Under the pieces are notes generated by a model. That model saw only the letters and a list, made by a program, of their open reading frames with translations, did not search any database and had not been told where the DNA came from. From a virus, in the IMG/VR virus record IMGVR_UViG_3300050581_000221: DNA of 64,000 nt; one strand, given 5' to 3'. Of this stretch, positions 14,150 to 64,000 are shown in pieces. Position 1 is the first letter of the stretch. Each line of letters begins with the position of its first letter. Made by a program: the position numbers and the translations under genes.

Positions 14150-14161
14150 CAAGGTGCCGCA

Positions 14162-38256: not shown

Positions 38257-38273
38257 TAAACGCGGATGCAACG

Positions 38274-43927: not shown

Positions 43928-44077
43928 GACTGTACAACCGCGCGGGGCGTCGGTCCTCTTGAGGCTGTCCATCCCTTTCTGCCCCTTGCTTTGCCTCTTG
44001 CGACCGACAGCACTTGAGCCGGGCGGCGGCGGGCAGCGCCGTCCGGCCTCTCTAACCTGTGGCATGACGACAGGCGT

Positions 44078-44911
44078 GTGGATCAACGTACCCTCTACAA
44101 CCTCAGCCTTTGTACCGGCGGCGCAGGTCTCGACCTGGGGCTCGGGCTCGCGCTCGGAAGCGTTCGCACCGTCTGTTGTGTGGAACACGAGGCGGCTGTC
44201 ATCGAAATCCTGGCTGAGGCAATGGAAGCGGGTTGCCTGGATGAAGCTCCTATTTGGACGAGTGTGCAATCCTTCGACGGCCGAGCTTGGCGTGGAGTCG
44301 TGGATACGCTCACTGCGGGCTACCCGTGCCAGCCATTCAGCAAGGCTGGGCGACGCCGTGGGCGCGATGATCCTCGCCACCTTTGGCCGCACGTGCATCG
44401 AATCATTGGCGAGGCTTAACCCGGCCTCGTGTTTCTCGAAAACGTGCCCGCGCATCTCAGCCTTGGATTCAGAGAGGTCATCAAAGACCTGGCGGGGCTG
44501 GGTTACGAGATTGCGGCAGGACTGTTCACGGCGGCAGAGGTTGGCTCAAGCCAAGGGAGGCAACGGCTTTTCGCACTCGCGGTGGCCGACGCCGACTGTC
44601 CACGATTATCGGACGCCCAACAGCGCCTATTCACAGAATCACCGGAAGCGGGACTGGTGCAAGGGGCAGCAACTCAGCAACTATGTCGCCCACTATTTCC
44701 GCCCGGACCCGAAAGCCCCTACTGGGAGCGAGAAGCGGACAACGCATTTGCCCCGGCTCAATCCACGGTTCGTCTGCTGGCTGATGGGCTGGCCCGAGAT
44801 CGCGCCCATTGGCTCCGGCTTCTCGGCAACGGCGTGGTCCCTTTGGCGGCGGCGTATGCGTTCTGCTCTCTGTGCGGTTCTTTGTGGAGCGGTCAAGAGG
44901 AAACACTATGA
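44078..44911 (+). pseudogene. Disrupted C5-cytosine DNA methyltransferase (dcm-like): in-frame TAA plus an internal +1/-1 frame excursion
   Basis: Motif I LSLCTGGAGLDLG and motif IV GYPCQPFSKAG (frame 2); TAA at 44417-44419; motif VI FLENVP and motif VIII QGRQRLFALAV (frame 2); WPTPT and motif IX-like RLNPRFVCWLMGWPE only in frame 0; motif X LGNGVVPLAAAYAF back in frame 2. Confidence 0.55.
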
Positions 44912-47082: not shown

Positions 47083-47157
47083 TGTAGCGTAGCTCAGTCG
47101 GTAGAGCGGGTGCCTGTTAAGCACTGGGTCGCTGGTTCGAGTCCAGCCGCTACAGCC
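47083..47157 (+). tRNA. tRNA-Asn (anticodon GTT)
   Basis: Cloverleaf folded by hand: acceptor TGTAGCG/CGCTACA, U8, D arm GCTC-AGTCGGTA-GAGC, anticodon arm GGTGC-CTGTTAA-GCACT, T arm GCTGG-TTCGAGT-CCAGC, discriminator G; CCA not fully encoded. Confidence 0.8.
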
Positions 47158-47176: not shown

Positions 47177-47977
47177 ATGCCCATCTTCTGCGTGAGCGAT
47201 CTGCACCTCTGCGACCGTGGCTACCGCGACAACTTCGCGGTGGAAGGCCGGGAGGCCCGCTTCCACAAGTTCCTGGACTACGTGGAGGCTGAGGGTGGTC
47301 AACTCTATATCCTCGGCGACTTGTTCGACTGGTGGCAAGCCAATCTGAGCCGGTCGATGCGCGCCTATCAAGACCTGCTGACTCGGTTGGCGCACATGGG
47401 ACCGCTTGGGGCTGTGTGGGTCGTCGGCAACCACGACAACGCCTTGACCGATTTCATTGGCAGCACGGTCGGACTGCGGGGGCTTGAGTTGCCAGCCATG
47501 TCCAAGACGTTCGAGGCAACCATCGGCGGTCGGCGGTTCGCCTTCCTCCACGGCCACGAGTCCGACCCCTATTGCCGGGACGGCAACCCTGGCACCGGCG
47601 AGATCACCGCGATCATTTCCGGGCTGCTGGAAGACCGCAACCGAGGGCCGTTCACGACGGATCGCCATGCCGTCGAAGACCAGTTCGTGGGGACGTTGGA
47701 AGGAGCTTTGACCCTTTGGAGGAAGCTGACGCTCCAACATGGCCGCCTGGATGAAATGCTCGATGGCGTCGAGGCGTGGCGGAAGGAGGCTGGGGCCGAC
47801 GCAGTGGTCTACGGTCACACTCATGAGCCGGGCCACATCGGCGATTACCACTTCAATACCGGCACCTGGGCCAGGACAAACGACACCTTCGTCCGAATCA
47901 ACGATGACGGCCGCGCCGAGGTCTGGGAGTGGCTACCGAACAACCGGCCCGCGTTGTTTCCCCACGCTCTGCGATGA
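47177..47977 (+). CDS. Calcineurin-like metallophosphoesterase (Ser/Thr phosphatase or diesterase-like)
   Basis: Motifs CVSDLH, GDLFD, GNHD, FLHGHE, GHTHEPG; RBS CTGGAGAAA. Confidence 0.7.
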   Translation: MPIFCVSDLHLCDRGYRDNFAVEGREARFHKFLDYVEAEGGQLYILGDLFDWWQANLSRSMRAYQDLLTRLAHMGPLGAVWVVGNHDNALTDFIGSTVGLRGLELPAMSKTFEATIGGRRFAFLHGHESDPYCRDGNPGTGEITAIISGLLEDRNRGPFTTDRHAVEDQFVGTLEGALTLWRKLTLQHGRLDEMLDGVEAWRKEAGADAVVYGHTHEPGHIGDYHFNTGTWARTNDTFVRINDDGRAEVWEWLPNNRPALFPHALR

Positions 47978-48837
47978 ACCTACCGGAACTGGAACAGTAC
48001 AAGGCGTACTCCATCCCGGCGGCGGCCATCTATTACGACGCCGCCTTCAATTGCCGGGGCGAGTTCACGCTGCAATCCGTCAAGGAATTGGCCGAGAGCA
48101 TTGCCCAGGCTGGGCGGCTGATCTGCCCGGTCGCCGTGCAGCCGTGGACGACAAACCCAGGCTTTGAGTACCGGCTGATCGTTGGACACCGCCGCTTCCG
48201 GGCCGTGACCGAGTTCCTGAAATGGACCGAGATACCGGCCTACGTCTGCGGTGGGCTGAGCGACCATGAAGCCCGCATGTTGAACTTCGTGGAGAACCTG
48301 CAACGCAAGAGCCTCAATGTCCTGGAAGAGGCTCGCGCGATCGAGCATCTGTTTCCCGAAGGCGTGAGCGTGCGGGAGGCGGCCCGCGAGTTGAAGCAGC
48401 CCACGCGATGGGTTTGGATTCGCCGCCAATTGCTACGGATGCCCGCGGCCGTTCAGCAGAAAGCCGCCGCCGGCCTGTTGTCGCAATGGAACCTGGACAC
48501 GCTAGCGGGCATCGAGTCGGCCGACGAGCAGATCGCCGCGGCCGACAAGATTGCTGAGGCGCGTACGCGGGGCAAAGGGAAGTTTCTGCCCGGCCTCAAC
48601 AAGGCGTATAAACGCCGCCGAAGCGTCCGGCCGCGCGAGGAGATCAATCGCATGATCGAACGGCTGTTGGCCGCCGGCATCGGCGGCCTGCCGCCCCGTG
48701 TAGCGGCGTGGTGTGCGGGAGATGTCTCCGACGAGGAGTTATGGAAGGAAATTCAGGCCGCGGCTCCAGAAACCGGCACAGATTCGGTCCTACTGATAGG
48801 TGCATCGAATGAGTTCGTCAACGGCAAGGCTGGCTGA
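47974..48837 (+). CDS. ParB N-terminal domain protein (second ParB-like gene)
   Basis: Signature GHRRFRAV (ParB GERRxRA box) preceded by ICPVAVQPW...YRLIVG; ATGA overlap with the upstream gene. Confidence 0.6.
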   Translation: MNLPELEQYKAYSIPAAAIYYDAAFNCRGEFTLQSVKELAESIAQAGRLICPVAVQPWTTNPGFEYRLIVGHRRFRAVTEFLKWTEIPAYVCGGLSDHEARMLNFVENLQRKSLNVLEEARAIEHLFPEGVSVREAARELKQPTRWVWIRRQLLRMPAAVQQKAAAGLLSQWNLDTLAGIESADEQIAAADKIAEARTRGKGKFLPGLNKAYKRRRSVRPREEINRMIERLLAAGIGGLPPRVAAWCAGDVSDEELWKEIQAAAPETGTDSVLLIGASNEFVNGKAG

Positions 48838-49168: not shown

Positions 49169-51832
49169 ATGAGCGATCGTCCGTCGAAACTCTACCTCGA
49201 TACGGAGACCTGCGGGCTGCACAGCATGATGGTGCTGTTGCAGTACGCCGTGGAAGATGGCCCAGTCACTTTGTACGAGGTCTGGCGGCGGCCCGTGAGG
49301 GAGACCCTCGCACTGATCGAATGGATATGCCGCCACACGGTCGTCGGCTTCAACCTGGCCTTCGATTGGTTCCACGTCTGCAAAACCTACACCATCTTCC
49401 GGCTCTGCGCCCCGGACTGGATTCCCGAGGAGCACATCGACGAGATCGCCATGCTGGAACCGCAGGGGCAGGACGGCCCGTGTGTCAAGCCGGCGGCGGC
49501 CCTGGACCTGATGCTTCACAGCCGCAAAGGCCCCTACCAGTCGCTCATGGCACGCGAGGACATTCGCATCAAGCGGGTGCCGACTGCGCTGGCCTACGCC
49601 TTGGCGCAAGAACTGGAGGCCCGAGTCCAGTTCGACAATATCTACTTCGCCAAGCGGGCCGACCCGGAAGCGCCCAAGTGGCAGGTTTTCGACCGCCACG
49701 ACTCGTTCGGGGATGTCGATACCGAGTTCAAGGATGTTGTCTTGAAGTTCAATCCGGCAGGCGGCCTCAAGTTCCTTGCCGAGCACGCCCTGAAGCTCAA
49801 GCCCAAGTATCACTACAAGGACGTGGAGCCGCCCCCCGCGTGGCGGCCCTATGAGCTGGGCTACGCGCCCACGGCTCTGGCCGTATCGAGTCCCGACAAG
49901 GGCTGGGTGATCGAAGCCGACGAAGAGGGCGGCAAGAAGGTCACGAAATACGCCTGGCCCGGCGTGATTCGCAGGTTCATCGACCATTGGGCCACTCGTG
50001 AAGACGCCCGCGAGTATGCCACCGACGACATCGTTTATACGCGCGCTCTGGACAAGCACTTCGGCTGCCCGGAACCGGGGGACAACGACTCCACCTTGGC
50101 CTGCATGGTGGCGGCAGTCCGCTGGCACGGCTTCACCATCAACCGCGAAGGGATCGCGGCCCTGAAGGCGAAAGCCGAAGCTACGGTGGCCGCCAGTCCG
50201 GTCAACATCAACAGGCCGGGCGAGGTCCGAGCTTACGTCACGGCGGTGATGGACGATACCGAGAAGGTGATTCTCGACGAGTCCACGAAGAAGGCCAACC
50301 TCGAAGCGATCAGCAAGTGGGGCGTCGGTCACTTGTGTCCGGAGTGCAAAGGAAAGGGCTATTTGGACAAGGAGACGGACATCTGCCCCCGGTGCAATGG
50401 CGCCTGTTATGTCGGTGAGCCGGAGCCGTGCGGCAGGTGTGAAGTAGCCATTCCACCACAATCGCTTCGCGTTCTCGGGCTGGAGCATGGAGGCAGCATC
50501 CAGACGATCGGCGCTGCGTATCGGCGTCTGGCCAAGCAATACCATCCCGACCATGGTGGCAATGCTGAGGATTTCAAGCGGCTTCAAGAGGCATTCGAGA
50601 CGGCAACTGCCAGTCTGGCAAATCGGGCGAAGTGCGCCCGTTGCGGCGGTACAGGCTTTCTGAAGGTGGGTCGTCATCCGGCTGCTGTCCGTGCCAAGGA
50701 AATCCTCGCGGTGAAATTCGCCGCCAAGGAGGTCGAGCTGTACGAAAAGCTGCTATTGGCCGGCAAGTTCCACGCCTCTTTCATCGTGATCGGCGCCCTT
50801 TCCTCGCGCATGGCGGGGGCGGACGGCCTGAATGCCCAGGGCATCAAGCACACCAAAGAAGTCCGCCAGATGTTCCCCTTGGCGTGGCCCGGATATGTGC
50901 TCTGTGGCGGCGACTTCAGTTCCTTCGAGGTGACGATCGCCGACGCCGTGTGCAACGACGAGGCCCTCCGCGCAGAGTTGATCGCGGGCCGGAAGATTCA
51001 CGCCTTGTTCGGCATGGCGATCTTCCCCGGCACGACCTACGAAGAGGTCAAGTCGAGCGACGGCAGCACGACCAACGACATGTACACCAAGGGCAAGCAG
51101 GGGTTCTTCGGCACGATGCTCTATGGCGGCGATCACAGCACCTTGGTCAACCGTCTGGGCATCAGCGAGGAAGTCGCCAAGCAGGCCATCGAGAGCTTTG
51201 GCCGCCGCTTTACGGGCGTCAAGAAGTGGCGAAAGCAGGTCGCCGACTCGTTCTGCTCCATGACTCAGCCCGGCGGCATCGGCACAAAGGTGGTCTGGAA
51301 GGAGCCGGCCGAATATGCCGAGACGATGCTCGGCTTCCGGCGCTATTTCACGTTGGAAAACCGCATCGCAAGGGCGATCTTCGACCTGGCCCGCAAGCCG
51401 CCGACACACTGGAAGGACTGCAAGGTCAAGGTGGTCCGCCGCGACCGCGTGCAGACAGCCGGCGGTGCCGTCTCGTCGGCCCTTTACGGCGCGGCCTTCT
51501 CGATGCAGGCGGCCAACATGCGGGCCGCTGCCAACCATGAGATCCAGTCGCCCGGTGCGGAAATCACCAAGCACGTTCAGCGGGAGATTTGGGACTTGCA
51601 GCCGGTCGGAGTGAACGATTGGCACATCGCCCCGATGAACATCCATGACGAGATCATGTGCGTCACGCGACCGGACATGGTTTCGAGCGTCACGGATGCG
51701 GTCCGCGAGTCGGTTGAGCGTTTCCGCCCCTACGTGCCGCTGATCGGGATGGATTGGAACGAGGAAATGGCGAACTGGGCGGAGAAGAAAAGCGGCACGA
51801 TCAAGATTCGCGCCCCGGAGATGATGAAGTGA
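49169..51832 (+). CDS. Family A DNA polymerase with 3'-5' exonuclease domain and an inserted DnaJ-like module (CxxCxGxG zinc finger plus J-domain)
   Basis: Exo I YLDTETCGL, Exo II GFNLAFDWF; Pol motif A CGGDFSSFEVTIADAV, motif B KGKQGFFGTMLYGG, motif C NIHDEIMCV; between the exo and pol parts: CPECKGKGY, CPRCNGACY, CGRCE, CARCGGTGF and a J-domain core LRVLGLEHGGSIQTIGAAYRRLAKQYHPDHGGNAEDFKRLQEAFE (HPD motif). Confidence 0.8.
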   Translation: MSDRPSKLYLDTETCGLHSMMVLLQYAVEDGPVTLYEVWRRPVRETLALIEWICRHTVVGFNLAFDWFHVCKTYTIFRLCAPDWIPEEHIDEIAMLEPQGQDGPCVKPAAALDLMLHSRKGPYQSLMAREDIRIKRVPTALAYALAQELEARVQFDNIYFAKRADPEAPKWQVFDRHDSFGDVDTEFKDVVLKFNPAGGLKFLAEHALKLKPKYHYKDVEPPPAWRPYELGYAPTALAVSSPDKGWVIEADEEGGKKVTKYAWPGVIRRFIDHWATREDAREYATDDIVYTRALDKHFGCPEPGDNDSTLACMVAAVRWHGFTINREGIAALKAKAEATVAASPVNINRPGEVRAYVTAVMDDTEKVILDESTKKANLEAISKWGVGHLCPECKGKGYLDKETDICPRCNGACYVGEPEPCGRCEVAIPPQSLRVLGLEHGGSIQTIGAAYRRLAKQYHPDHGGNAEDFKRLQEAFETATASLANRAKCARCGGTGFLKVGRHPAAVRAKEILAVKFAAKEVELYEKLLLAGKFHASFIVIGALSSRMAGADGLNAQGIKHTKEVRQMFPLAWPGYVLCGGDFSSFEVTIADAVCNDEALRAELIAGRKIHALFGMAIFPGTTYEEVKSSDGSTTNDMYTKGKQGFFGTMLYGGDHSTLVNRLGISEEVAKQAIESFGRRFTGVKKWRKQVADSFCSMTQPGGIGTKVVWKEPAEYAETMLGFRRYFTLENRIARAIFDLARKPPTHWKDCKVKVVRRDRVQTAGGAVSSALYGAAFSMQAANMRAAANHEIQSPGAEITKHVQREIWDLQPVGVNDWHIAPMNIHDEIMCVTRPDMVSSVTDAVRESVERFRPYVPLIGMDWNEEMANWAEKKSGTIKIRAPEMMK

Positions 51833-52593: not shown

Positions 52594-53091
52594 ATGGAGA
52601 TGCAACAACGTCCCGAGCCGTGGATGTGCATGCCCTTGGCCTTCGCGATGGCTCTGGACATGCCCGTCGCCGACCTGCTCGCCGCTATTGGCCACGACGG
52701 CAGCGAGATCGTCTTCCCGAGTCTTCCCGAGCCGCTCTGCCGCCGGTGCTTCCACATCCAGGAGCTAATCCAAGTTGCGCTGGCGCGCGGCTGCGCCGTC
52801 ACGCCAGTGGAACTGTTCCCTGTGCTACAGCCCACGGATGCCGGGCCGCACAAGACAGTGCTCTACCCGGACAACAACTGGCGACGGTTTGAGGAAACGA
52901 TCCGCGCCAGTCGCGGCGTGATTGACGGCACCGGCGCACGCCACGGCCACACGGTCGCCTACGACCATGGCCGCATCTTCGACCCGAAAGGCCCGGTCTA
53001 CGACTACTCCCGCCTCGGCTGCGAAGCCCACCAGTTCTACACCCGCTGCGCCTGGCGGATCGACCCCATCGGAGAACGCACCTGTGAGTAA
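52594..53091 (+). CDS. Putative papain-like cysteine peptidase (Cys ... His) of unknown specificity
   Basis: EPWMCMPLAFAMAL (candidate nucleophile) and HGHTVAYDHGRIFDP (candidate His/Asp); weak, pattern-level only. Confidence 0.3.
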   Translation: MEMQQRPEPWMCMPLAFAMALDMPVADLLAAIGHDGSEIVFPSLPEPLCRRCFHIQELIQVALARGCAVTPVELFPVLQPTDAGPHKTVLYPDNNWRRFEETIRASRGVIDGTGARHGHTVAYDHGRIFDPKGPVYDYSRLGCEAHQFYTRCAWRIDPIGERTCE

Positions 53092-53752
53092 TCAGTACAA
53101 CGATCTCCTTGTTTCGCAAATGAACAAGCCGCTGGACGCTGCCAAGAACGCTGAATTGTACCGCCGGATTGTGGCCGGCGATGCCGCCGCTCGTGAAGAG
53201 ATGATTGTTGGCAACATGCCGTTGGCTATCGCGAACGTCGAGAAGTTCATTCGTCGCGTCCCGCAGGCGGCCCATCTGCGCGACGATCTCGTGAGCGCTG
53301 CGTTCACCGGATTGGTGAAAGCTGTCAACGGCATGATGAAAGGCCACCGAGTCAAGAAGCCCGACAAGTGGAATCCTGCCTGCCACATAGGGACTTCGAT
53401 CAATCACGAGTTGAGCCGGGCAATCGAGGACGAGAACCCGATTCACCTGCCCCACGAATCGGAACGGTTGGCAAAGCGAAAAGGGCAGCCCATTGAGTTG
53501 CCCGAGATCGTCAACACCGTTCCTGAACGCTTCGAGGTTCCTTCCTACGAGAAGGAACTGGAGATGCGCGATCTGATCGAGTCCTGCTGCACGTGCGAGG
53601 AAGAACGAACGTTCGTGACCATGCGGGAGGCAGGCTACACGTTTGTAGAAATCGCGGCGGCCATCAACATGCCGCTCGCGTCCACTCACGCAATGGCTAA
53701 GAAGTTGAACGCTCGCGTGCAACGCAAGTTGGAGGCCCTGCGCGACGAATGA
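53084..53752 (+). CDS. Sigma-70 family RNA polymerase sigma factor
   Basis: Region 2-like ELYRRIVAGDAAAREEMIVGNMPLAIANVEKF...DDLVSAAFTGLVKAV; region 4 HTH FVTMREAGYTFVEIAAAINMPLASTHAMAKKLNARVQRKL; GTG start with RBS GGAGAA. Confidence 0.65.
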   Translation: MSNQYNDLLVSQMNKPLDAAKNAELYRRIVAGDAAAREEMIVGNMPLAIANVEKFIRRVPQAAHLRDDLVSAAFTGLVKAVNGMMKGHRVKKPDKWNPACHIGTSINHELSRAIEDENPIHLPHESERLAKRKGQPIELPEIVNTVPERFEVPSYEKELEMRDLIESCCTCEEERTFVTMREAGYTFVEIAAAINMPLASTHAMAKKLNARVQRKLEALRDE

Positions 53753-54330: not shown

Positions 54331-54355
54331 TTCCGGTCCTACTAAGGTGAGGCAC

Positions 54356-55537
54356 ATGTCTTTTGAGCAAAACACCGTGATGCAGGCTTCCGTGATGGCA
54401 AGACGCGAGTTCCTTCAACTGGCCGACCACTACGATCCCCGCAAACATGACGTGGCCGGGTGGTTCATCTCCGAGAAACTTGACGGCACCCGCTGCTTCT
54501 GGGACGGCGGGATCAGCCGCGGCTTGTCAACCGAACAAGTGCCGTGGGCCTCGCTCATCGACCCCAAGACGGGTGAGAGGAAGGCCAAGATCAAACCCGT
54601 GGCGACCGGCCTGTGGAGCCGCTACGGCAACCCGATCATGGCCCCGGACTGGTGGCTCAATCGACTGCCCGCGTGCCCGTTGGACGGCGAGTTGTGGGCC
54701 GGACGGGGCAAGTTCCAGCTTTGCCGGTCGATCTGCGGCGGCGATGCACCCGACGAGCGCTTCGACAAGATCGTCTTCGCCGTCTACTCGACGCCGCCCT
54801 TGGGCGCGGTCTTCAGTACGGGGCAGATCAAGAACGCCAACATGGTCTGCCAGGTCGATTACCTCACGATTGAGGCGTGGATCAGGCAGCGGCTCAACTC
54901 CCGAGGCAAGCGATTCGGCGGGCTGCCCATCCCGAAACGTTGCCTGGGTGATGACTTCAAGTTCCTCACGGCTGACCAGCCGTTCGGCAAGGAAGTGGCT
55001 GTGCTCAGCGAAGCCTTGGAGAACAGCGACGCTTCAATCTGTTACCTCCACCCGCAAACGAAGCTGATCGACATTCCTGAGGCGGCTGGCGACCAGGTAG
55101 AGGACTACCTGCAACGGGTGCTCGATCAGGGCGGCGAAGGCGTGGTGATTCGCAATCCTAATGCCATTTGGATGCCGAAGCGGCACCGAGCAATCCTCAA
55201 GTACAAGCCCTTCCAAGATGCCGAGGCCCGCATTGTGGGCTTCACCAGCGGCCGGGAGACGAGCAAAGGCAGCCGGCTGTTGGGCAAGATCGGTGCCCTG
55301 ATCGTGGACTACCAGGGCAAGCGGCTGGAACTCGCCGGCCTCACGGACGAAGAGCGGGAGTTCGCCGATCCGATGGCCCGTGACTGGGCCACAAACAATC
55401 CCGGCCAGGACACGCCGTACTGGGTCGAAGGCAAGCACTTCAAGAAGGGCCAGACGGTCACGTTCAAGTACCGCGAACTCTCTGATGACGGCATCCCGAA
55501 AGAGGCCCGCCTTTGGAGACTGCGTGACGCTGAATGA
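54356..55537 (+). CDS. ATP-dependent DNA ligase
   Basis: Motif I KLDGTR; motif IV EGVVIRNP; motif V ILKYK; RBS TAAGGTGAGG. Confidence 0.75.
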   Translation: MSFEQNTVMQASVMARREFLQLADHYDPRKHDVAGWFISEKLDGTRCFWDGGISRGLSTEQVPWASLIDPKTGERKAKIKPVATGLWSRYGNPIMAPDWWLNRLPACPLDGELWAGRGKFQLCRSICGGDAPDERFDKIVFAVYSTPPLGAVFSTGQIKNANMVCQVDYLTIEAWIRQRLNSRGKRFGGLPIPKRCLGDDFKFLTADQPFGKEVAVLSEALENSDASICYLHPQTKLIDIPEAAGDQVEDYLQRVLDQGGEGVVIRNPNAIWMPKRHRAILKYKPFQDAEARIVGFTSGRETSKGSRLLGKIGALIVDYQGKRLELAGLTDEEREFADPMARDWATNNPGQDTPYWVEGKHFKKGQTVTFKYRELSDDGIPKEARLWRLRDAE

Positions 55538-55582: not shown

Positions 55583-56827
55583 ATGACCGGCAAACACCGA
55601 ACCATTACGCTCGACCGGGCGACGCTTTGCCAAGGGGATTCCCGCGAGGTGCTTCCCTTGCTGGAGCCAGAACAGTTCACAGCGTGTGTGAGCGATCCAC
55701 CGTATCACTTGACGCAGGCGAGCCGCAAGGGGAGCCCGCGAAACAACGATCCCAAGACGCCCTTCGGCCGCACGCGGCTCGGCTCACGTGGATTCATGGG
55801 CAAAACCTGGGACGGCGGCGACACGGCCTTTCAGGCTGAATTCTGGGCCGAGGTGCTCCGTGTGCTCAAGCCGGGGGCAATGCTCCTGACGTTCGGCGGC
55901 ACGCGGACGTTTCACCGCCTGATCTGCGCGATCGAAGACGCAGGTTTCGAGGTCCGCGATTGCCTGATGTGGATCTATGGTTCCGGTTTTCCCAAGTCGT
56001 TGGACATCTCCAAGGCCCTCGACCAGGCAGCGGGGGTGGAGCGAAACGTGATTGGCCGTCGCAAGCATCCCACGCTCAGGGACACCCACAAGCTCGAAAA
56101 ACAAGCGAATGCGGCACACGGTGACAATGCGTGGGCAAGAGAGTGGGACGTTACCGCGCCCGCCACGGACTCAGCCAGGACGTGGGCCGGGTATGGCACT
56201 GCGCTCAAACCGGCGTGGGAGCCGATCGTCCTCGCGATGAAGCCCCTCGACGGCACGTTTGCCCAGAACGCTCAGCAGCACGGTGTCGCCGGGCTGAATA
56301 TCGACGCCTCGCGGATCGGCAGCGGCGATGCCAAAGGTCGCTGGCCAGCCAACGTATTGTTGGACGAAAAGGCGGGCAGCTTGCTTGACGCTCAAAGCGG
56401 CATCACGAAAAGCGGCGCGATGAAACGCTGCGTGGGCCCGTATCCAGGACAGAATGCAACCGGTTTCCTCCGCGGGCACTCCGGGCCGCACAACCAACGC
56501 GGCGACTCCGGCGGAGCCTCACGGTTCTTCTACTGCGCCAAGGCCAGCGAGCGAGACCGCACGTGTGAGGGCCAGGTCCAGAACAACCACCCAACGGTCA
56601 AGCCGCGTTCATTGATGGACTACCTGTGTCGCCTGGTCACCCCGCCGGGCGGCGGACTGATTCTGGATCCGTTCATGGGGTCGGGCTCGACCGGCATCGG
56701 GGCACTGCTGACCGGCAATCGGTTCGTAGGGATCGAGCTTGAGCCTGAGAGCTTCGAGATAGCGCGGCAGCGGGTCGAGATTCTGGCGCAGTCGCTTTCT
56801 CAATCGGAGAGCCTTGTCCGTGACTGA
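55583..56827 (+). CDS. DNA methyltransferase, N6A/N4C type (beta class), paralogue B
   Basis: CVSDPPYH motif IV at the N-terminus; DPFMGSGSTGIGA motif I at the C-terminus; shares ALKPAWEPIVLAMKPLDGT...GGASRFFYC...HPTVKP with the 40711 and 59462 genes. Confidence 0.75.
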   Translation: MTGKHRTITLDRATLCQGDSREVLPLLEPEQFTACVSDPPYHLTQASRKGSPRNNDPKTPFGRTRLGSRGFMGKTWDGGDTAFQAEFWAEVLRVLKPGAMLLTFGGTRTFHRLICAIEDAGFEVRDCLMWIYGSGFPKSLDISKALDQAAGVERNVIGRRKHPTLRDTHKLEKQANAAHGDNAWAREWDVTAPATDSARTWAGYGTALKPAWEPIVLAMKPLDGTFAQNAQQHGVAGLNIDASRIGSGDAKGRWPANVLLDEKAGSLLDAQSGITKSGAMKRCVGPYPGQNATGFLRGHSGPHNQRGDSGGASRFFYCAKASERDRTCEGQVQNNHPTVKPRSLMDYLCRLVTPPGGGLILDPFMGSGSTGIGALLTGNRFVGIELEPESFEIARQRVEILAQSLSQSESLVRD

Positions 56828-57584
56828 GACTGCCAAGATCACCTATCGCCAGTACGGCGGCAAGGCGTCCATCGCCAAGTGGATCGTCTCGCATTTCCCG
56901 GAGCACCGCACCTACTTGGAGCCACTGTGCGGGTCCGCCGCTGTGCTGTTGGCAAAGCCACGTTCATTCGTCGAGATCATCAACGACCTTGACGAGGTCA
57001 TCTTCCGAATGTGGGCCGCGATCAAGTCGCAGCCCGAGAAATTGGCTGCCCTGTTGTGGGCGACGCCATACACGGCCGCCAACTGGCGAGAACAACCCGT
57101 GGGCGACATCGACCAGGCTGTGCTGTTGATGGCCCAGGGCGCGCAGTTTTATTGCGGGAACGGCAACTCGTCCACTTGGTCGCTCGACAAGTGCCCGGCC
57201 CCGCACAAGCCCAAGCCCGAGGTCTGGGCAGACTGGTTCCGACGGGTCTTACCCGCCGCCAACCGGCTGCGAGGGGTCCAGTTGCTTCACGAGGACGCGC
57301 TGGTCGCCATCCAGCGGGTCTACCGTGACCCCGAAGCCCTGATTTTCGCAGACCCACCATACTACGGCCACGAAGACGAGTACCGCTACCGCATCGACTA
57401 TCCGGCGATGGTCGAACTGTTGAATGCGGCAAAGGCCAAGGTGGTCGTTTCCGAGTACCCGACCGCCGCCGAGTTCTACCGCGGCTGGAATCGCATCGAC
57501 CGCGTAACCGCCAGCCGGGCCGGCACGGGGCGACACAAATCCAGCGGCAAGAAAAAGACCGAAGTCCTGTTCACCAACTTTTGA
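56814..57584 (+). CDS. Dam-family (D12 class) DNA N6-adenine methyltransferase
   Basis: YRQYGGKASIAKWIV, EPLCGSAAV (motif I), IFADPPYY (motif IV). Confidence 0.7.
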   Translation: MSVTETAKITYRQYGGKASIAKWIVSHFPEHRTYLEPLCGSAAVLLAKPRSFVEIINDLDEVIFRMWAAIKSQPEKLAALLWATPYTAANWREQPVGDIDQAVLLMAQGAQFYCGNGNSSTWSLDKCPAPHKPKPEVWADWFRRVLPAANRLRGVQLLHEDALVAIQRVYRDPEALIFADPPYYGHEDEYRYRIDYPAMVELLNAAKAKVVVSEYPTAAEFYRGWNRIDRVTASRAGTGRHKSSGKKKTEVLFTNF

Positions 57585-57594
57585 GCTTGGCGCG

Positions 57595-58320
57595 ATGAAA
57601 CGCAATCCAAAACAGGCCGACAGCACTCTCTACGATTGCATCCCGCAGGCCGGGCCGTGCCCGATTGGCTGCAACCAGTGTTTCTACAATCGGCCAGGGG
57701 CCTTCTACGTCCCCATCGACCAGCCACACTTCCCGTCCCTGGAGGAAGTGGGCGACGGCATCGTGCGGGTCAACTGCGGCAACGACAGCAACAACCAGCG
57801 GGAACATGTAATCGCCTCGACGGCCCACTATCCGCGCCGATTCTTCAACACGAGCATCCCGAAGTTCGACTTCCCCGGCCCGGTCGTCTTGACCGCGAAC
57901 CCGCGCGAGGAGGTGCCGGGCTACCAGCCGCTCTTCCTCCACGAAGGCCCGCCCGCGAACCTCATGTTCGTGCGACTCCGGGTCTCCAGCACCAACTTGC
58001 ACCACATTGCCGAAGCGGTCAAACGCTGGACGGGCCAGGACGTGCCGGTCGTGCTGACCTTCATGGCCTACTACGATGCCGAGCCGCAAGTGCCGGCCGA
58101 GGTCCGGGCGGCAGTCGGCGGCCCATGCTACGAGTGGCGGGTCCGCCACATCAACTCGTACTGGTGCCCGACGCCGGCATTCATTCGCTGGGTCATGGCC
58201 GCTTATCGCAGTAACCGCCTGGTGTCCTACTGCGGCAGCCTGGAAGGCTCGTACTGCCGACTGTGCCGCAACTGTGAAACCCACTACCTGCAAACCATCA
58301 AACGCATGAAGGGAGAATGA
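57595..58320 (+). CDS. Cys-rich protein with radical-SAM-like CxxxCxxC motif (DUF5131/Gp37-Gp68-like?)
   Basis: N-terminal CPIGCNQCFY; a further Cys cluster at the C-terminus (CGSLEGSYCRLCRNCETHY); embedded in the methyltransferase island. Confidence 0.4.
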   Translation: MKRNPKQADSTLYDCIPQAGPCPIGCNQCFYNRPGAFYVPIDQPHFPSLEEVGDGIVRVNCGNDSNNQREHVIASTAHYPRRFFNTSIPKFDFPGPVVLTANPREEVPGYQPLFLHEGPPANLMFVRLRVSSTNLHHIAEAVKRWTGQDVPVVLTFMAYYDAEPQVPAEVRAAVGGPCYEWRVRHINSYWCPTPAFIRWVMAAYRSNRLVSYCGSLEGSYCRLCRNCETHYLQTIKRMKGE

Positions 58321-58322
58321 CC

Positions 58323-58469
58323 GTGGGCGGAGTCGTGACCTTGATTATCTCGCTCTTGGCCGGCGCGGTCGTCGTGACCATGACCTGCGAGGCACCCGTG
58401 GCCATCATCACCGTTTGCGGGGCCGTGGCCGTGGCTGCCATCATCGCCAAAGCCAAGGGGGTGTCTTGA
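58323..58469 (+). CDS. Small hydrophobic protein (48 aa, two TM segments)
   Basis: GTG start with RBS AAGGGAGAA; ATGA overlap with the next gene; not in the ORF track. Confidence 0.35.
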   Translation: MGGVVTLIISLLAGAVVVTMTCEAPVAIITVCGAVAVAAIIAKAKGVS

Positions 58470-58747
58470 TGACGACGCCCCGACAGAACGCCGATTTCGT
58501 CAACCACCTTCTCCCGGCGGAGCCACTCGGTGCGGCTATCGAGTGGATCAAAGCGAACCTTTCACCGGGCGACGTGTTTAGCGAGGAACAGCTTGCCGAG
58601 CACGCCCGCGCAAACCTGGAAATTGACGCCGTGTACTCCGAGAGCAACATCCTCAGCTACGTCGCCGGCACCTTCAATCCCGGCGAAGTCTTCGACACCG
58701 GCCAACTGGAAATCTGGGCCGAAGACAACGGCTACGTGAAAGAGTAG
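58469..58747 (+). CDS. Hypothetical acidic protein (92 aa)
   Basis: ATGA-coupled to the upstream small ORF. Confidence 0.35.
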   Translation: MTTPRQNADFVNHLLPAEPLGAAIEWIKANLSPGDVFSEEQLAEHARANLEIDAVYSESNILSYVAGTFNPGEVFDTGQLEIWAEDNGYVKE

Positions 58748-58814
58748 TCGGCCTGTCCATCTGAAACACGCGATTGCCAACTGTCTGAGACCCTGCGCCG
58801 AAGAGGAATGCGGA

Positions 58815-59321
58815 ATGAAAACCGGCATCGGAAGTCACACCCGTGCCTTCCGTGGAAAAACCGACTGCTGGCTGACGCCGCCGGAGATCATCCGGGCGCT
58901 GGGGCCTTTCGATCTCGACCCCTGCGCCGCTCCGGGCCAGCCGTGGCCGACCGCCAAGCATCACTACGCCCCGCCGCAAGATGGGCTGCAACTGCCGTGG
59001 TACGGCAGGATATTTTGCAACCCACCCTATGGCGAACAGACGGGGCGATGGTTGGAACGCCTGAGTGAGCATGGAAATGGCATCGCCCTGGTCTTCGCCC
59101 GGACTGAGACGGCGATGTTCTTCGAGCACGTCTGGGGAAAGGTCGCCGCGGCGCTGTTTCTGGAAGGCCGGCTGCACTTTTACCAACTGGACGGAACAAG
59201 GGCCAAGGGCAACTCCGGTGGGCCGTCCGTGTTGCTGGCCTATGGCGAAGAGAACGCCCGACTGCTGCGGCAGTGCCCGTTGAAGGGCGCGTACTGCACA
59301 ACAACCGCGAGGCATCGATGA
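58815..59321 (+). CDS. Phage-type DNA N6-adenine methyltransferase (T1/phage Dam-like)
   Basis: WLTPPEI, DLDPCA and CNPPYG motifs in the order typical of the phage Dam family. Confidence 0.6.
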   Translation: MKTGIGSHTRAFRGKTDCWLTPPEIIRALGPFDLDPCAAPGQPWPTAKHHYAPPQDGLQLPWYGRIFCNPPYGEQTGRWLERLSEHGNGIALVFARTETAMFFEHVWGKVAAALFLEGRLHFYQLDGTRAKGNSGGPSVLLAYGEENARLLRQCPLKGAYCTTTARHR

Positions 59322-59461
59322 AGAGACACCCGAGATAATCGTCCGCCGCTTCGAGGAAATCTGCCAATCCACGTAAGACCGCCCGGCCGCTCCTGATCCT
59401 TTCGAGCAAGGCCAATCGGTCGCTGACCCAATTACCCGTAACTGTCTCGCACTACGCGCCC

Positions 59462-60841
59462 ATGCTGCCTTACTACGAGAAAAACGGCATCACGCTCTAC
59501 CACGGCGATCTGCGGGAGGTGCTTCCGCAGGCGATGCAGCCGGGCACGGTGGACTTCGTTGTCACCGACCCGCCCTACGGCTTGGGCTTCATGGAGAAGG
59601 ACTGGGATTTCGACGTTCCCGGCCCGGCTTACTGGAACACGATTGCCAGCGTGTGCAAGCCCGGCGCTCTGCTCTTGGCCTTCGGCGGAACGCGCACATG
59701 GCACCGGCTCGTTGGGGCGATCGAGGATGCCGAGTGGGAAATCCGTGACTGCCTGATGTGGCTCTACGGCCAGGGATTCCCGAAGTCGTTGGACATCTCC
59801 AAGGCCCTCGACAAGTTGGCCGGAGCAGAGCGGGAGATCGTCGGCCGGCGTTCTCAACCGGACATCCGCGGCGACAGTTTTCAGAACCGGCAGCGACACG
59901 GCAAGGCCGGCAACGTCGAGATCCTCGACACCATTCCGGCCACGGAAATGGCCAAACGCTGGAACGGTTGGGGTTCCTCCTTGAAGCCGGCCTGGGAACC
60001 GATCGTCCTGGCCATGAAGCCACTCGACGGCACCTTCGCGCAGAACGTCCAGCGCCACGGCGTCGCCGGCATGAACATCGACGCCTGCCGGATACCCTGT
60101 GACTACGCCGCTGAGTACGGCGAGAAGTGGCTTTCGTCAGGCAAGGGAAAAGCTGGCCCCTGGCACGCCACCGAGTACGAAGAAACTCGCAGCGTGGCAG
60201 AACGGGTTTCGCCCCTCGGCCGCTGGCCGGCGAACCTGCTCTTGGAGCATCATCCCGAGTGCCGGCAAGTGGGCACCACGACCCTGCGTGGCGATCCGCG
60301 GGGCAACTGCGCTGGGCGGCGCCCTGGGGGCTTCGGCAACGTGGGCGCGGACTCTGGCGATGGCGAGCCGAACGCTCGGGTTTACGGGAACGAGGTCGTG
60401 CCGCTCTATGAATGCCATCCCGATTGTCCCGTGGGAGCGCTGGACGCCCAGACCGGCACGCTCGCCAGCGGCAAGATGAAGGCCGGTCAGCAACGCAATC
60501 GCAGCAAGGGCGAAGGCGGCTATCACGGAGACTTCCCGGACACAGCGTCGGCCACCGGCACCTATGGCGACTCCGGCGGAGCCTCTCGTTTCTTCTACTG
60601 TAGCAAGGCGACGAAGAAGGAACGCGGCCCGGGCAACGACCATCCCACGGTCAAGCCGCTGGAACTGATGGGCTACCTGCTGACGCTGCTCTCCACGCCG
60701 ACCGGCGGCGTCGTTCTCGACCCCTTCGCTGGCAGCGGAACGACCCTGATCGCCGCCAAGAGACTCGGCCGCCCGTGCATCGGCGTCGAACTGGATGCCC
60801 ACAACTGCGAGATCGCCGTCGCCCGCTTGGAACGCGCATGA
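59462..60841 (+). CDS. DNA methyltransferase, N6A/N4C type (beta class), paralogue C
   Basis: VVTDPPYGLGFMEKDWD (motif IV); DPFAGSGTTLIAAKRLGR (motif I); about 55-60% identical at the termini to the 40711 gene, with a divergent central region. Confidence 0.75.
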   Translation: MLPYYEKNGITLYHGDLREVLPQAMQPGTVDFVVTDPPYGLGFMEKDWDFDVPGPAYWNTIASVCKPGALLLAFGGTRTWHRLVGAIEDAEWEIRDCLMWLYGQGFPKSLDISKALDKLAGAEREIVGRRSQPDIRGDSFQNRQRHGKAGNVEILDTIPATEMAKRWNGWGSSLKPAWEPIVLAMKPLDGTFAQNVQRHGVAGMNIDACRIPCDYAAEYGEKWLSSGKGKAGPWHATEYEETRSVAERVSPLGRWPANLLLEHHPECRQVGTTTLRGDPRGNCAGRRPGGFGNVGADSGDGEPNARVYGNEVVPLYECHPDCPVGALDAQTGTLASGKMKAGQQRNRSKGEGGYHGDFPDTASATGTYGDSGGASRFFYCSKATKKERGPGNDHPTVKPLELMGYLLTLLSTPTGGVVLDPFAGSGTTLIAAKRLGRPCIGVELDAHNCEIAVARLERA

Positions 60842-61365
60842 CTTATCTAACTATTTGTGCCGATCCGCCGTGGGAGCCCGCTCTGGGTGCCAACTGGAAG
60901 ACCCGGTTTACCGACAAGGCCCGGCCGCAGAAGCACTACCGGACCATGGGCGTGGCGGAGATCTGCAGCCTGAAGGTGCTGGCTGCGAAGCAAGCTCACC
61001 TGTGGCTCTGGGTGCTCAACCAGCATGTCGATTGGGGTTACGAGGTGGCGCGGGCCTGGGGATTCGAGCCGTGGACTGCGATTACCTGGTGCAAACCAGG
61101 GTTGGGCGTTGGCCGCTTCCAGTGCAACACCGAGCACGTCCTGATTTGCCGCAAGGGGCCGCGACACAGCAACCCCTTCGGCCGCACCGGCGGGACATGG
61201 TTCACCTGGCCGCGTGGCCGACATAGCGAGAAACCGGAGGAGTTCTACCGCTTGGTCGAATCTGTCTCCCCCGGTCCCTACTTGGAAATGTTCGCCCGCC
61301 GACGCCGCCCCGGTTGGGATGCCTTCGGCGATGAAGTGGAGGATTCGATATGCCTGGCCGATTGA
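60838..61365 (+). CDS. MT-A70 family N6-adenine methyltransferase
   Basis: ATGA overlap with the upstream MTase; ICADPPWE catalytic motif (DPPW); about 175 aa, typical size. Confidence 0.65.
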   Translation: MTYLTICADPPWEPALGANWKTRFTDKARPQKHYRTMGVAEICSLKVLAAKQAHLWLWVLNQHVDWGYEVARAWGFEPWTAITWCKPGLGVGRFQCNTEHVLICRKGPRHSNPFGRTGGTWFTWPRGRHSEKPEEFYRLVESVSPGPYLEMFARRRRPGWDAFGDEVEDSICLAD

Positions 61366-61399
61366 CCGTCAAACGCAACGGCTACCGGGAGTTGCTGCC

Positions 61400-61996
61400 A
61401 TGACCAAACGGAAGATCAACCGCCTCGCCCTGAACCGCGGCTATCTGTGCGGCGCGATGGACCGGGTAACGGACGGCGGCATCGGCTGGCGTCAAGACCT
61501 GATCGAGAGTCTCAAGGACTTGGGCATCCTCTGGCTCGATCCCACGCGAAAGCCCATCGACATCGGCGTCGAGGACTTGGAGAACCGTGCCCTGCGCCAC
61601 AAGGCGAAGCGAGCCGGTGACTTCGAGTTTGTCCGCAGCCAGATGAAGCAAATTCGCCCCGTCGATTTGCGGATGGTGGACATCTGCGACTTCCTCGTGG
61701 TCAACCTCGACCTCGAAGTCCACGCTTGCGGAACCTACGAAGAGCTGTACTGGGGAAACCGCATGAAGAAGCCGATCCTCGTGCGGATCGAACAGGGCAT
61801 CGAGCACACGCCTGATTGGCTCTTCGGCGTTCTCCCCTTCCAGATGATCTTCGCGACGTGGGATCAAGTGAAGAGCTACCTGCGGCACATTGCCCACGAT
61901 CCGATGATCGACCGGCTCAACCGCTGGTACTTCTTCGACTGGATGGGTGAGCCTGAGAAGGCCGCCATAGCGAAAGCCGGGGAGGGAGGCCGGTGA
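61400..61996 (+). CDS. Nucleoside 2-deoxyribosyltransferase-like (NDT-fold) protein
   Basis: N-terminal YLCGAMD and a C-terminal ACGTYEELYWGNRMKKPIL resembling the NDT motif DSGTAFEIGYAAALGKPV. Confidence 0.4.
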   Translation: MTKRKINRLALNRGYLCGAMDRVTDGGIGWRQDLIESLKDLGILWLDPTRKPIDIGVEDLENRALRHKAKRAGDFEFVRSQMKQIRPVDLRMVDICDFLVVNLDLEVHACGTYEELYWGNRMKKPILVRIEQGIEHTPDWLFGVLPFQMIFATWDQVKSYLRHIAHDPMIDRLNRWYFFDWMGEPEKAAIAKAGEGGR

Positions 61997-62107: not shown

Positions 62108-62293
62108 ATGGAACCCTATCGGAAAGAGAAGTTGCCCGGCCGTAATGACAAGTGCCCGTGCGGCAGCGGCAAGAAGGCCAAGCGGTGCTGTTTGGACAAG
62201 CTCAAAGCCTTTGCCGCCCTGCCGCCGCGCTTGCGCGAGCAAGTCGTGGTCGCCAAGATTCTCGGCCAACCTGCCAATACCCTCGGAGCCTGA
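62108..62293 (+). CDS. SEC-C motif small protein
   Basis: NDKCPCGSGKKAKRCC (SecA C-terminal metal-binding motif); RBS GGAGAA. Confidence 0.5.
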   Translation: MEPYRKEKLPGRNDKCPCGSGKKAKRCCLDKLKAFAALPPRLREQVVVAKILGQPANTLGA

Positions 62294-62294
62294 T

Positions 62295-63287
62295 ATGCGC
62301 ATCCCCAAGTCTCTCAGCTACTCGTCAATGTCCCTGTGGTACAAGGACCAGGACGAGTTCTACATCCGCTACCTGGCCGATCACGCCGCGCCGCGATTGC
62401 CGCAGGAACAGCCGGCCGCTGTGGGCAGCGCCTTCGACGCCTACGTCAAGGCCCAGCTCAACTGGCACCTCTATGGTCGGGCCATTTCGCCGCAATTCGA
62501 GTTCCCCGCCATCTTCGAGAATCAGGTTGAGCCGCAGAACCGGGACTTCGCGCTCAAGGCCGGCAAGCACGTTTTCAAGGCATACAAGCTCTGCGGAGCC
62601 TACGACGATCTCTTGAAGCAATTGCAGCAATCGGTCGAACCGCCGCGATTCGAGTTCAAGGTGGACGGCCTGATCGAAGGCGTCCCCTTTACGGGCAAGC
62701 CCGATTGCCGCTTCGTCTTGGACCTTAGGCAGGGTCGCATCCCCTGCATCTACGACTGGAAGGTCCGCGGGTACTGCTCCAAATACGGAGCCTCCCCGTC
62801 AAAAGGATACGCCGTCTGCCTGGACGGCTTCGTGGGCAAGGCCAGCCGCAGCCAGGGCAAGGAACACGCCATGTACAAAGCGATGGATTTCCGGGGCTTG
62901 ACGATCAACTCGGGCTACATGGAGTTCTGCAACGACGAGTATGCCGACCAGCTTTGCCTCTACGCCTGGCTCTTGGGCGAGAGGATCGGCGACGAGAACA
63001 CGGTGCTGGGGATTGAGGAGTTGTGCGCCAAGCCGGGCAACCCGCCTACGCTCCGCTACGCCCGCCATCGCGGCCGGGTCAAGGGCGACTATCAGCAGAA
63101 GCTTGCCGAGCGGGTCACTACCTGTTGGCAGGCCATTACGAGCGGCCACGTCTTTTCCAGCCTCAGCCGCGAAGACAGCGACGCCCGCTGCCGAGTCTTG
63201 GACGAAATGGCCGTGGGCCTCATGTCCAACGGCACCGCTTTGGACGACTGGTTCAACGATGTCACCCGACCGAAGTTCTTCCACTAA
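62295..63287 (+). CDS. PD-(D/E)XK nuclease (Cas4/RecB-like exonuclease fold)
   Basis: YSSMSLWYKDQDEFYIRYL N-terminal motif; GKPDCRFVLD ... IYDWKV (D...D/E-x-K). Confidence 0.5.
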   Translation: MRIPKSLSYSSMSLWYKDQDEFYIRYLADHAAPRLPQEQPAAVGSAFDAYVKAQLNWHLYGRAISPQFEFPAIFENQVEPQNRDFALKAGKHVFKAYKLCGAYDDLLKQLQQSVEPPRFEFKVDGLIEGVPFTGKPDCRFVLDLRQGRIPCIYDWKVRGYCSKYGASPSKGYAVCLDGFVGKASRSQGKEHAMYKAMDFRGLTINSGYMEFCNDEYADQLCLYAWLLGERIGDENTVLGIEELCAKPGNPPTLRYARHRGRVKGDYQQKLAERVTTCWQAITSGHVFSSLSREDSDARCRVLDEMAVGLMSNGTALDDWFNDVTRPKFFH

Positions 63288-63889: not shown

Positions 63890-64000
63890 TATGCACCGAT
63901 TGATAAATGCCGACTGCCTCGACGTGCTGCCGTCGTTACCGGACTTCGCGTGCTGTTTCATGGACCCTCCCGACGCCATCGGGCTGAGCCACAACGGCTA
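63890..64000 (+). CDS. DNA methyltransferase N-terminus (3'-partial at the window end)
   Basis: MHRLINADCLDVLPSLPDFACCFMDPPD resembles the start of N6A/N4C MTases (LxxGDxLexL...DPPY). Confidence 0.35.

Follow-up and report, generated by a model that had tools for sequence, protein, structure and literature searches.

The 64,000-nucleotide stretch of viral DNA analyzed here (IMG/VR record IMGVR_UViG_3300050581_000221; hereafter, the window) carries, between positions 55583 and 61996, a dense island of DNA methyltransferase (MTase) genes accompanied by a protein with a radical S-adenosylmethionine (SAM) fold and by a protein related to nucleoside 2-deoxyribosyltransferases (NDT). We consider it likely that the island consists of a conserved replication backbone loaded at two junctions with orphan MTases that protect the phage DNA against restriction, that avoidance of palindromes operates alongside, and that the iron-sulfur (Fe-S) and NDT-fold genes have separate roles in the backbone. 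Phages are known to use clusters of orphan MTases against restriction, and this island is a strong example of that strategy. What is new is the architecture of cargo junctions, its co-occurrence with a near-total purge of palindromes in what are most likely phages of planctomycetes and, above all, an unannotated family of radical-SAM-fold proteins.

Methyltransferase cargo on a replication backbone

Five intact MTase genes lie between positions 55583 and 61365, in less than 6 kb, all on the + strand and tightly packed (Table 1). They comprise two paralogs of the N6_N4 family (M1 and M4), one D12-class enzyme (M2), one Dam of the PF05869 family (M3), and one MT-A70 member (M5). With a third N6_N4 paralog (M0), a C5 cytosine MTase bearing a nonsense codon, and a gene cut by the end of the window, the total reaches eight MTases, six of them intact, from five families. 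Catalytic motif IV is preserved in all six intact proteins (DPPY in four, NPPY and DPPW in the others); M0, M1, and M4 all score above the gathering cut-off of N6_N4_Mtase (PF01555, 26.7 bits), and the PHROG scores of the MTases (134 to 218 bits) exceed their Pfam scores. The initial annotation had every named element of the interval in its right place, with the second small open reading frame (ORF) joined to the first by TGATG and not by ATGA. Its figure of at least eight MTase genes in the window (six intact of the N6A/N4C type, one disrupted C5, and one partial) is borne out by Pfam, motifs, and phmmer, whereas its "six MTases of five families" within the interval must be reduced to five genes of four Pfam families, the higher figures applying to the window as a whole. 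A phmmer sweep of every window ORF against twelve MTase queries found no additional MTase. The partial gene at the window end matches, by phmmer, a 250-aa N6_N4 MTase located at the same position in relatives.

Table 1. Position and supporting evidence of the features discussed in the text
Feature	Coordinates	Strand	Evidence and remarks
IS110-family transposase	31197-32414	-	DEDD_Tnp_IS110 and Transposase_20
ParB-like protein	38178-39203	+	ParB_N and HTH_ParB
M0, third beta-class N6_N4 MTase paralog	40711-41901	+	Pfam 103.8 bits; DPPY at residue 47, FAGSGT at residue 371
C5 cytosine MTase, interrupted	44078-44911	+	LCTGGAGLDLG, PCQPFS, ENV, and GNGV in one frame
tRNA-Asn(GTT)	47083-47157		Replication region
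ParB-like protein	47929-48837	+	ParB_N and HTH_ParB
PolA, family-A DNA polymerase	49169-51832	+	887 aa
Sigma-70-family factor	52922-53752	+	
ATP-dependent DNA ligase	54347-55537	+	Pfam DNA_ligase_OB_2 and DNA_ligase_A_M
M1, beta-class N6A/N4C DNA MTase	55583-56827	+	Pfam N6_N4_Mtase 90.3 bits; phrog_67 218 bits; DPPY at residue 42, FMGSGS at residue 368 (beta order); ORF open from TTG 55571, likely start ATG 55583
M2, D12-class N6-adenine MTase	56814-57584	+	MethyltransfD12 (PF02086) 45.6 bits (cut-off 22); phrog_56 134 bits; DPPY at residue 180; start overlaps the end of M1
Radical-SAM-fold protein	57595-58320	+	241 aa; unannotated family; core gene
tiny50	58317-58469	+	Conserved, very hydrophobic 50-aa peptide with two Cys; ATGA overlap (58317-58320) with the radical-SAM-like gene
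small92	58469-58747	+	Acidic 92-aa protein; TGATG overlap with tiny50
M3, small phage-type Dam (PF05869) N6-adenine MTase	58815-59321	+	Dam 38.9 bits (cut-off 28.1); phrog_111 137.5 bits; NPPY at residue 69; PADLOC orphan-MTase model
M4, beta-class N6A/N4C DNA MTase, paralog of M1	59462-60841	+	N6_N4_Mtase 88.3 bits; DPPY at residue 36, FAGSGT at residue 422
M5, MT-A70-family MTase	60838-61365	+	MT-A70 (PF05063) 57.4 bits (cut-off 23.9); phrog_359 136.8 bits; DPPW at residue 9; ATGA-coupled to M4 (overlap 60838-60841)
NDT-superfamily protein	61400-61996	+	198 aa, from ATG 61400 in ORF 61214-61996; core gene
Small SEC-C-motif protein	62108-62293		CPCGSGKK..CC; core gene, downstream of the NDT-like gene
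330-aa protein	62295-63287		No family match; core gene, after the SEC-C protein
Small N6_N4-type MTase, 5' end	63892-64000	+	ATG 63892, first 36 codons, DPPD; cut by the window end

The C5 gene is broken by a single in-frame TAA (44417-44419) where two relatives (L003 and L004) read GAA, which reflects either a nonsense mutation by one G-to-T change or an error of sequencing. A long ORF at 43959-44933, chosen by gene callers in relatives, was rejected as a gene since it is a shadow frame of this C5 MTase. M1 and M4 share 72-74% nucleotide identity over two blocks, the sole notable repeat found by a repeat search. Together with M0, they form a set of paralogs whose ends share 44-68% identity and whose middle regions diverge, the pattern expected for altered target specificity. 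As judged from their motifs, the members of this dense set of orphan MTases appear active, and the presence of several families probably brings several target specificities. Five MTase genes in less than 6 kb are not a chance pattern, because the genes are supported by homology and their arrangement is found again in relatives.

Phages with up to four MTases have been reported, for example Cellulophaga phage phi18:1 (PMC11946311). The MTases of the window resemble the orphan MTases of phages (T4/T2 Dam, P1 Dam, and the PF05869 Dam) in being stand-alone Type II-like enzymes encoded without a nuclease among early or replication genes, in their presumed protection against host restriction, and in the Pfam families to which they belong (N6_N4, D12, Dam, MT-A70, and C5). 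They differ by a load at the high end, with five intact genes in 5.8 kb and eight genes in 64 kb, and by their confinement to two defined junctions, where their number ranges from 0 to 6 among relatives, in genomes with extreme palindrome avoidance.

The relatives were examined in 55 loci, assembled from contigs bearing homologs of the radical-SAM-like protein and from a scan of IMG/VR. About 39 of them have the backbone of the window in the same order: PolA, three small genes including a sigma factor, sometimes an NT5C-like gene, the ligase, the radical-SAM-like gene, a tiny peptide, deoC, the NDT-like gene, the SEC-C protein, and the 330-aa protein. By tblastn, the backbone genes are widespread (radical-SAM-like in all 55 loci, ligase in 39, PolA in 38, NDT-like in 37, and 330-aa protein in 36), as compared to the D12 MTase (19 loci, in which the M2 orthologs share 72-94% identity), MT-A70 (19), Dam (10), and M1 (7). 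In 31 non-redundant loci, we then counted with phmmer how many MTase genes lie at most about 10 kb from the radical-SAM-like gene. Three loci have none (L008, L038, and L045), four have a single one (L005, L016, L030, and L035), and five or six are found in the window, in L001 and L006 (six each), and in L049. In MTase-poor relatives (L016 to L021), no MTase separates the ligase from the radical-SAM-like gene and these two genes are much closer together, while deoC and the NDT-like gene soon follow the tiny peptide. The MTases of the window sit at these two junctions, the first of which joins the ligase to the radical-SAM-like gene and the second the tiny peptide to the deoC-NDT segment. Since one and the same anchor gene is accompanied by anywhere from 0 to 6 MTases, these enzymes constitute a variable cargo, carried at two junctions of a replication backbone. 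Conversely, the radical-SAM-like and NDT-like genes belong to the core of the lineage and not to the methylation cargo, since both are kept in relatives without a nearby MTase (L008 and L038).

No cognate endonuclease accompanies the MTases. Indeed, none of the island ORFs is both unassigned and of nuclease size, PADLOC matches the MTases to MTase_II or orphan-MTase models only, and it returned no match for the four non-MTase proteins submitted to it (radical-SAM-like, NDT-like, small92, and 330-aa). Because no non-MTase ORF resembles a nuclease or a PADLOC defense protein, the MTases are orphan and do not make up a restriction-modification system.

The genome itself bears the mark of restriction. 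Using a maximal-order Markov model for the expected frequency of hexamers, we found z < -3 for 32 of the 44 6-bp palindromes that could be tested in the window, versus 0.3% of 3,046 non-palindromic hexamers, and 6-bp palindromes total 519 against 1,118 expected. CTCGAG, CAGCTG, AGTACT, GTGCAC, and GAGCTC are absent from the window, and AAGCTT occurs once where 21 copies are expected. When the 31 related loci are pooled, the purge proves nearly complete for many sites (observed/expected: AGGCCT, 0/182; CTCGAG, 0/212; GTGCAC, 0/98; TTCGAA, 2/167). Little or no depletion affects TCGA, CATG, CCGG, GATC, CGGCCG, AGCGCT, GAATTC, and CAATTG, and a tempting reading is that such spared sites are those protected by methylation. 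Such strong avoidance of palindromes shows that the lineage evolves under strong Type II-like restriction, a setting in which a cargo of MTases pays. Phages of Planctomycetota, hosts that have received little study, would thus combine two anti-restriction strategies. Two further ideas were abandoned. One was a trade-off between palindrome avoidance and MTase load, dropped since, although some individual sites differ in MTase-rich relatives, the per-locus correlation is not significant; the other was the assignment of the undepleted sites CAATTG and GATC as targets of MT-A70 and of Dam/D12, respectively, which was rejected as unsupported.

Our working model is that M1 and M2 fill the first cargo slot of the window, and small92, M3, M4, and M5 the second, deoC having presumably been lost from the window. 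We infer that the MTases are co-transcribed with the replication genes, because the genes are co-directional and mostly overlapping or nearly abutting. Freshly replicated phage DNA would then be methylated by these enzymes at several different motifs, on N6 of adenine and/or N4 of cytosine, and so resist the numerous restriction systems of the hosts. This would complement the genome-wide loss of 6-bp palindromes.

The radical-SAM-fold and NDT-fold proteins

The initial annotation singled out a CxxxCxxC radical-SAM-like protein, and this reading holds: the 241-aa protein has its three cysteines at C22, C26, and C29, and its predicted structure is a radical-SAM fold. The AlphaFold model, built from 36 sequences, is confident (pLDDT 88.6, pTM 0.88) and displays a partial TIM barrel with the cluster loop after beta-1. 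Its closest solved structure is spore photoproduct lyase (SPL; PDB 4fhc), followed by NifB, viperin, Mmp10, QueE, RlmN, and PFL-AE. These matches score moderately, with little difference among functionally unrelated members of the superfamily, so that the fold assignment is sound but does not extend to a subfamily. A second motif, CX7CX2CX2C, lies near the C terminus (C213, C221, C224, and C227). No substitution of C22, C26, or C29 occurs among 47 sequences reaching down to 29% identity, and the complete set of invariant residues comprises N4, K6, C22, C26, C29, D64, N102, M124, R127, T155, C213, C221, C224, and C227. Invariant or nearly invariant polar residues (D64/S65, N85/T86, T100/N102, R127, and T155) fall at or just after predicted strands, as expected for the active site of a barrel, and the G-N-D-S segment after strand 2 may be the positional counterpart of the GGE motif that binds SAM.

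At the sequence level, the protein stands apart. It has no match in Pfam (E < 0.01, including PF04055), NCBIfam (E < 1), PHROGs, or PADLOC, and it does not belong to the equivalog model of spore photoproduct lyase, TIGR04070. The family profile gave chance matches only against PDB sequences, Foldseek returned nothing significant among the viral structures of BFVD, and hhalign with the SplB-like radical-SAM protein of locus L039 aligned the Cys loop only, with a probability of 1.5%. Every database name in the clusters of the protein is "hypothetical protein." The family counts 803 close homologs in a metagenome protein collection, and among 1.84 billion representative proteins (50%-identity level) the family profile recovered 229 members at E <= 1e-3, of which 188 reach E <= 1e-10. 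The family is thus discrete, with no sequence bridge to other radical-SAM families. It shares with the radical SAM superfamily the CX3CX2C motif after the first beta strand, the polar residues at or after strand ends, and a small size like that of QueE and PFL-AE; it differs by lacking a sequence match to PF04055, to the NCBIfam radical-SAM models, or to SPL, by its additional invariant C-terminal CX7CX2CX2C motif, by its isolation (the 229 representatives), and by its link to phage replication modules.

This link extends beyond the main lineage, in which the gene lies between the ligase and the deoC/NDT-like pair, close to PolA and the sigma factor. Altogether, the gene is found in the replication module of six unrelated backgrounds; for the most distant representatives of the family, the contigs are too short to give a gene context. 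In L043, it follows a PrimPol-D5 helicase and a small ORF and precedes a MazZ-like dATP/dGTP diphosphohydrolase, a RuvX-like gene, and the terminase. In the L039 group, the order is sigma factor, MazZ-like gene, homolog, and SplB/PA0069-like radical-SAM gene, then a pyridoxal phosphate (PLP) enzyme and a D12 MTase. In L047, the homolog is followed by a small ORF and PolA, and in L063, from an Armatimonadia metagenome-assembled genome (MAG), a sigma factor and a small ORF come before the homolog, an 857-aa protein, an SNF2 helicase, and a deoxynucleoside monophosphate (dNMP) kinase. Finally, an ENA contig has PolA, small ORFs, the homolog, and DUF3987. The MazZ-like genes (PF18909) that flank the homolog lie at 9294-9731 in L039 and at 10791-11243 in L043. 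Of note, a sigma-70-family gene stands a few genes 5' of the radical-SAM-like gene in three phage backgrounds: the window, L039 (8468-9073), and L063 (5036-5629).

Fusions add little. One homolog (P0242) is interrupted, exactly ahead of the conserved C-G-N-D-S-N motif, by an intein that bears an HNH homing endonuclease; inteins typically reside in conserved motifs of enzymes of nucleic acid metabolism. Another (P0280) has an N-terminal WDGH domain, and in some members, such as P0055, the N terminus is extended by about 95 aa. Pfam scans of the fused or longer members detected the intein-HNH and the one WDGH domain only, and no fusion that reveals a function.

From its predicted fold and its gene contexts, we view the protein as a radical-SAM-type enzyme of the phage replication/nucleotide module that probably acts on DNA or on a deoxynucleotide. 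It would cleave SAM, with two Fe-S sites or with one Fe-S and one Zn site, during replication. We put forward more tentatively, as a possibility that we rate below even chances, that it founds an undescribed radical-SAM family which is a fixed part of replication modules in several unrelated phage lineages and catalyzes, with the participation of the auxiliary four-Cys site, a radical reaction on DNA or a deoxynucleotide not yet described for viruses, either a new modification of base or sugar or an SPL-like repair. Our literature search found no description of a phage radical-SAM enzyme of this kind, and if the family does act on DNA or nucleotides, it would bring a new reaction to the nucleic acid chemistry of phages.

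Two small genes follow. Homologs of tiny50, 48 to 50 aa in length, occur just 3' of the radical-SAM-like gene in 17 distinct relatives. Because changes at codon position 3 far exceed those at positions 1 and 2 (for example, 4/0/13 and 10/3/29 for the three positions), tiny50 is a real gene under purifying selection; it could encode a membrane partner or a peptide substrate. The next gene, small92, has tblastn matches in 11 of the 55 loci and no family match in Pfam, PHROG, NCBIfam, or PADLOC scans.

The NDT-like protein falls below the Pfam cut-offs (18.1 bits for PF05014 and 20.1 bits for PF15891, versus 28.8 and 30), although a few of its 609 homologs bear these families in precomputed annotation, and it has no match among PDB sequences. 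The match of the protein to the NDT-type fold is nevertheless clear, and the family has an invariant G-T-x-E-E segment, including the conserved Glu, at the place of the DxGTxxE nucleophile motif of NDT enzymes. This segment is shared with the NDT superfamily (PF05014 and PF15891; the dNMP N-glycosidase Rcl/DNPH1, the CMP/hmCMP hydrolase MilB, and YtoQ); the scores below the gathering cut-offs, a helical insertion of about 40 residues, and a C-terminal tail set the protein apart. Furthermore, in about 36 related loci, the NDT-like gene has a genuine deoC (TIGR00126 equivalog, 193 bits versus a cut-off of 117) as its immediate 5' neighbor. The end of deoC (13952-14599) overlaps the start of the NDT-like gene in L001, and deoC, the radical-SAM-like gene, and the NDT-like gene are contiguous in that order in L036. 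The window has no deoC anywhere, including at the corresponding junction (61365-61400). Because deoC abuts the NDT-like gene, the context suggests hydrolysis of a glycosidic bond and breakdown of deoxyribose rather than the base exchange of a transferase. The most economical view is that of a Rcl/MilB-type hydrolase, acting as an N-glycosidase on a deoxynucleoside or deoxynucleotide and releasing deoxyribose or deoxyribose-5-phosphate, which DeoC would split in relatives. Together with the NT5C-like nucleotidase, the two proteins would form a branch for deoxynucleotide breakdown or pool sanitizing. The pairing of deoC with an NDT-fold gene thus suggests a phage-encoded route from deoxynucleotides to central metabolites.

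These observations bear on the idea, already present in the initial annotation, that the Fe-S and NDT-like genes form an additional pathway of base modification or exchange. In its fullest version, the radical-SAM-like protein, the NDT-like protein, and one or more MTases would jointly install or exchange a non-canonical base, for example by radical C-methylation or methylthiolation on N6-methyladenine, or by a base swap at the nucleoside level. The D12 MTase gene does end 10 nt 5' of the radical-SAM-like gene and also adjoins it directly in the closest relatives, but the radical-SAM-like and NDT-like genes are kept without any nearby MTase in L008, L038, and L045. Likewise, the contiguity of deoC and the two genes in L036 might suggest a joint pathway, yet the constant partner of the NDT-like gene is a catabolic aldolase and the radical-SAM-like gene occurs without an NDT-like gene in all of the distant, unrelated backgrounds. 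Deoxynucleoside triphosphate pyrophosphohydrolases of the MazZ type flank the gene in two backgrounds, and the L039 homolog is near the second radical-SAM gene, the PLP enzyme, and the D12 MTase. The latter setting recalls the thymidine/cytosine hypermodification clusters of phages M6, ViI, and SP10, some of which have radical-SAM and PLP enzymes beside nucleotide-metabolism genes (PMC5889632, PMC8989533). In contrast to those clusters, the window ORFs scanned include no known hypermodification enzyme: we found neither the hallmark genes (synthesis of 5-hydroxymethyldeoxyuridine or 5-hydroxymethyldeoxycytidine, 5-HMUDK kinase, and aminoacyl or glycosyl transferases) nor thymidylate-synthase-like, hydroxymethylase, kinase, glycosyltransferase, or transglycosylase genes. 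We regard a joint hypermodification pathway as unlikely and retain separate backbone roles for the two proteins.

Alternative roles of the methyltransferases

The MTases might instead serve mainly to regulate the phage life cycle, through origin use, recognition of the packaging site, the lysis-lysogeny switch, or evasion of mismatch repair. Phage MTases, notably of the Dam type, can indeed function in packaging or regulation, as exemplified by P1 Dam, and the location of the MTases in the replication module, by PolA, the ligase, ParB-like proteins, and a sigma factor, would suit such functions. However, a regulatory MTase is expected to be conserved with its targets, whereas close relatives with a common backbone carry anywhere between 0 and 6 MTases, and paralogs with divergent target-recognition regions suit a diversification of specificity. 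A primarily regulatory role is, to our mind, quite improbable. Very little credit can be given to a prophage-borne restriction-modification or defense island, in which the MTases would be modification halves protecting the lysogen from other phages: relatives in large bacterial MAG contigs do imply that the lineage can be a prophage and PADLOC Type II MTase models are matched, but there is no endonuclease-like ORF and all island ORFs are accounted for, the four non-MTase proteins tested have no PADLOC match, the genes, encoded on the strand of PolA and the ligase, are embedded in the replication module and not in a moron-like lysogeny region, and the avoidance of palindromes is the signature of a restriction target.

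The proposal of an anti-restriction cargo at two junctions has its own weaknesses. The activity of the MTases and their distinct specificities are deduced from motifs, and one of the eight genes (C5) contains a nonsense codon, which indicates some decay. A scan for promoters and terminators was uninformative and, like the repeat search, delineated no cassette boundaries. Palindrome depletion per locus does not correlate significantly with the number of MTases (rho 0.25, p 0.18), a comparison that is confounded by relatedness. In addition, the packaging and regulatory uses of MTases in other phages, and the position of the D12 gene directly 5' of the radical-SAM-like gene in the closest relatives, which may reflect a functional link, are further points against it. 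The initial interpretation, a multi-specificity anti-restriction methylome with a possible pathway of base modification or exchange, is supported in part: the density of orphan MTases, the lack of a nuclease, the 0-to-6 variation, and the palindrome avoidance all fit, and the motifs make catalytic activity and multiple specificities plausible.

Genome setting and host

The window, with about 62% G+C, is part of a phage or prophage genome from an uncultivated lineage. Close-match and protein-level searches with the island, PolA, and the radical-SAM-like protein against 50,697 GenBank phage records revealed no close or informative relative. The first 28 kb or so is occupied by long + strand ORFs that had no match in one Pfam scan. 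From about 38 kb onwards, a + strand module of replication and nucleotide metabolism encodes two ParB-like proteins, a helicase, an exonuclease, a metallophosphoesterase, the family-A DNA polymerase, the sigma-70-type factor, an NT5C-like nucleotidase, and the ATP-dependent ligase.

Searching one genome per species for the radical-SAM-like gene identified it in ten MAG contigs, of which six are assigned to Planctomycetota (Thermoguttaceae, Planctomycetaceae, and Planctomycetia). Bin assignments are not unanimous, as one protein record gives Bryobacteraceae for the same cluster. Because the gene is on Planctomycetota MAG contigs, four of which are large (480 kb, 137 kb, 188 kb, and 1.07 Mb), the lineage is most likely temperate and infects planctomycetes. 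The two ParB-like proteins and the tRNA-Asn(GTT) in the replication region, taken with the presence on large MAG contigs, may relate to lysogeny or to a plasmid-like maintenance.

Two other features of the window deserve mention. The IS110-family transposase, inserted within the phage genome, separates the upstream block of + strand ORFs from a block on the - strand that encodes an exonuclease and a DUF5906 protein. PolA has a match to DnaJ (J-domain) at residues 435-478, between its N-terminal part and the polymerase domain, which represents an unusual fusion or insertion.

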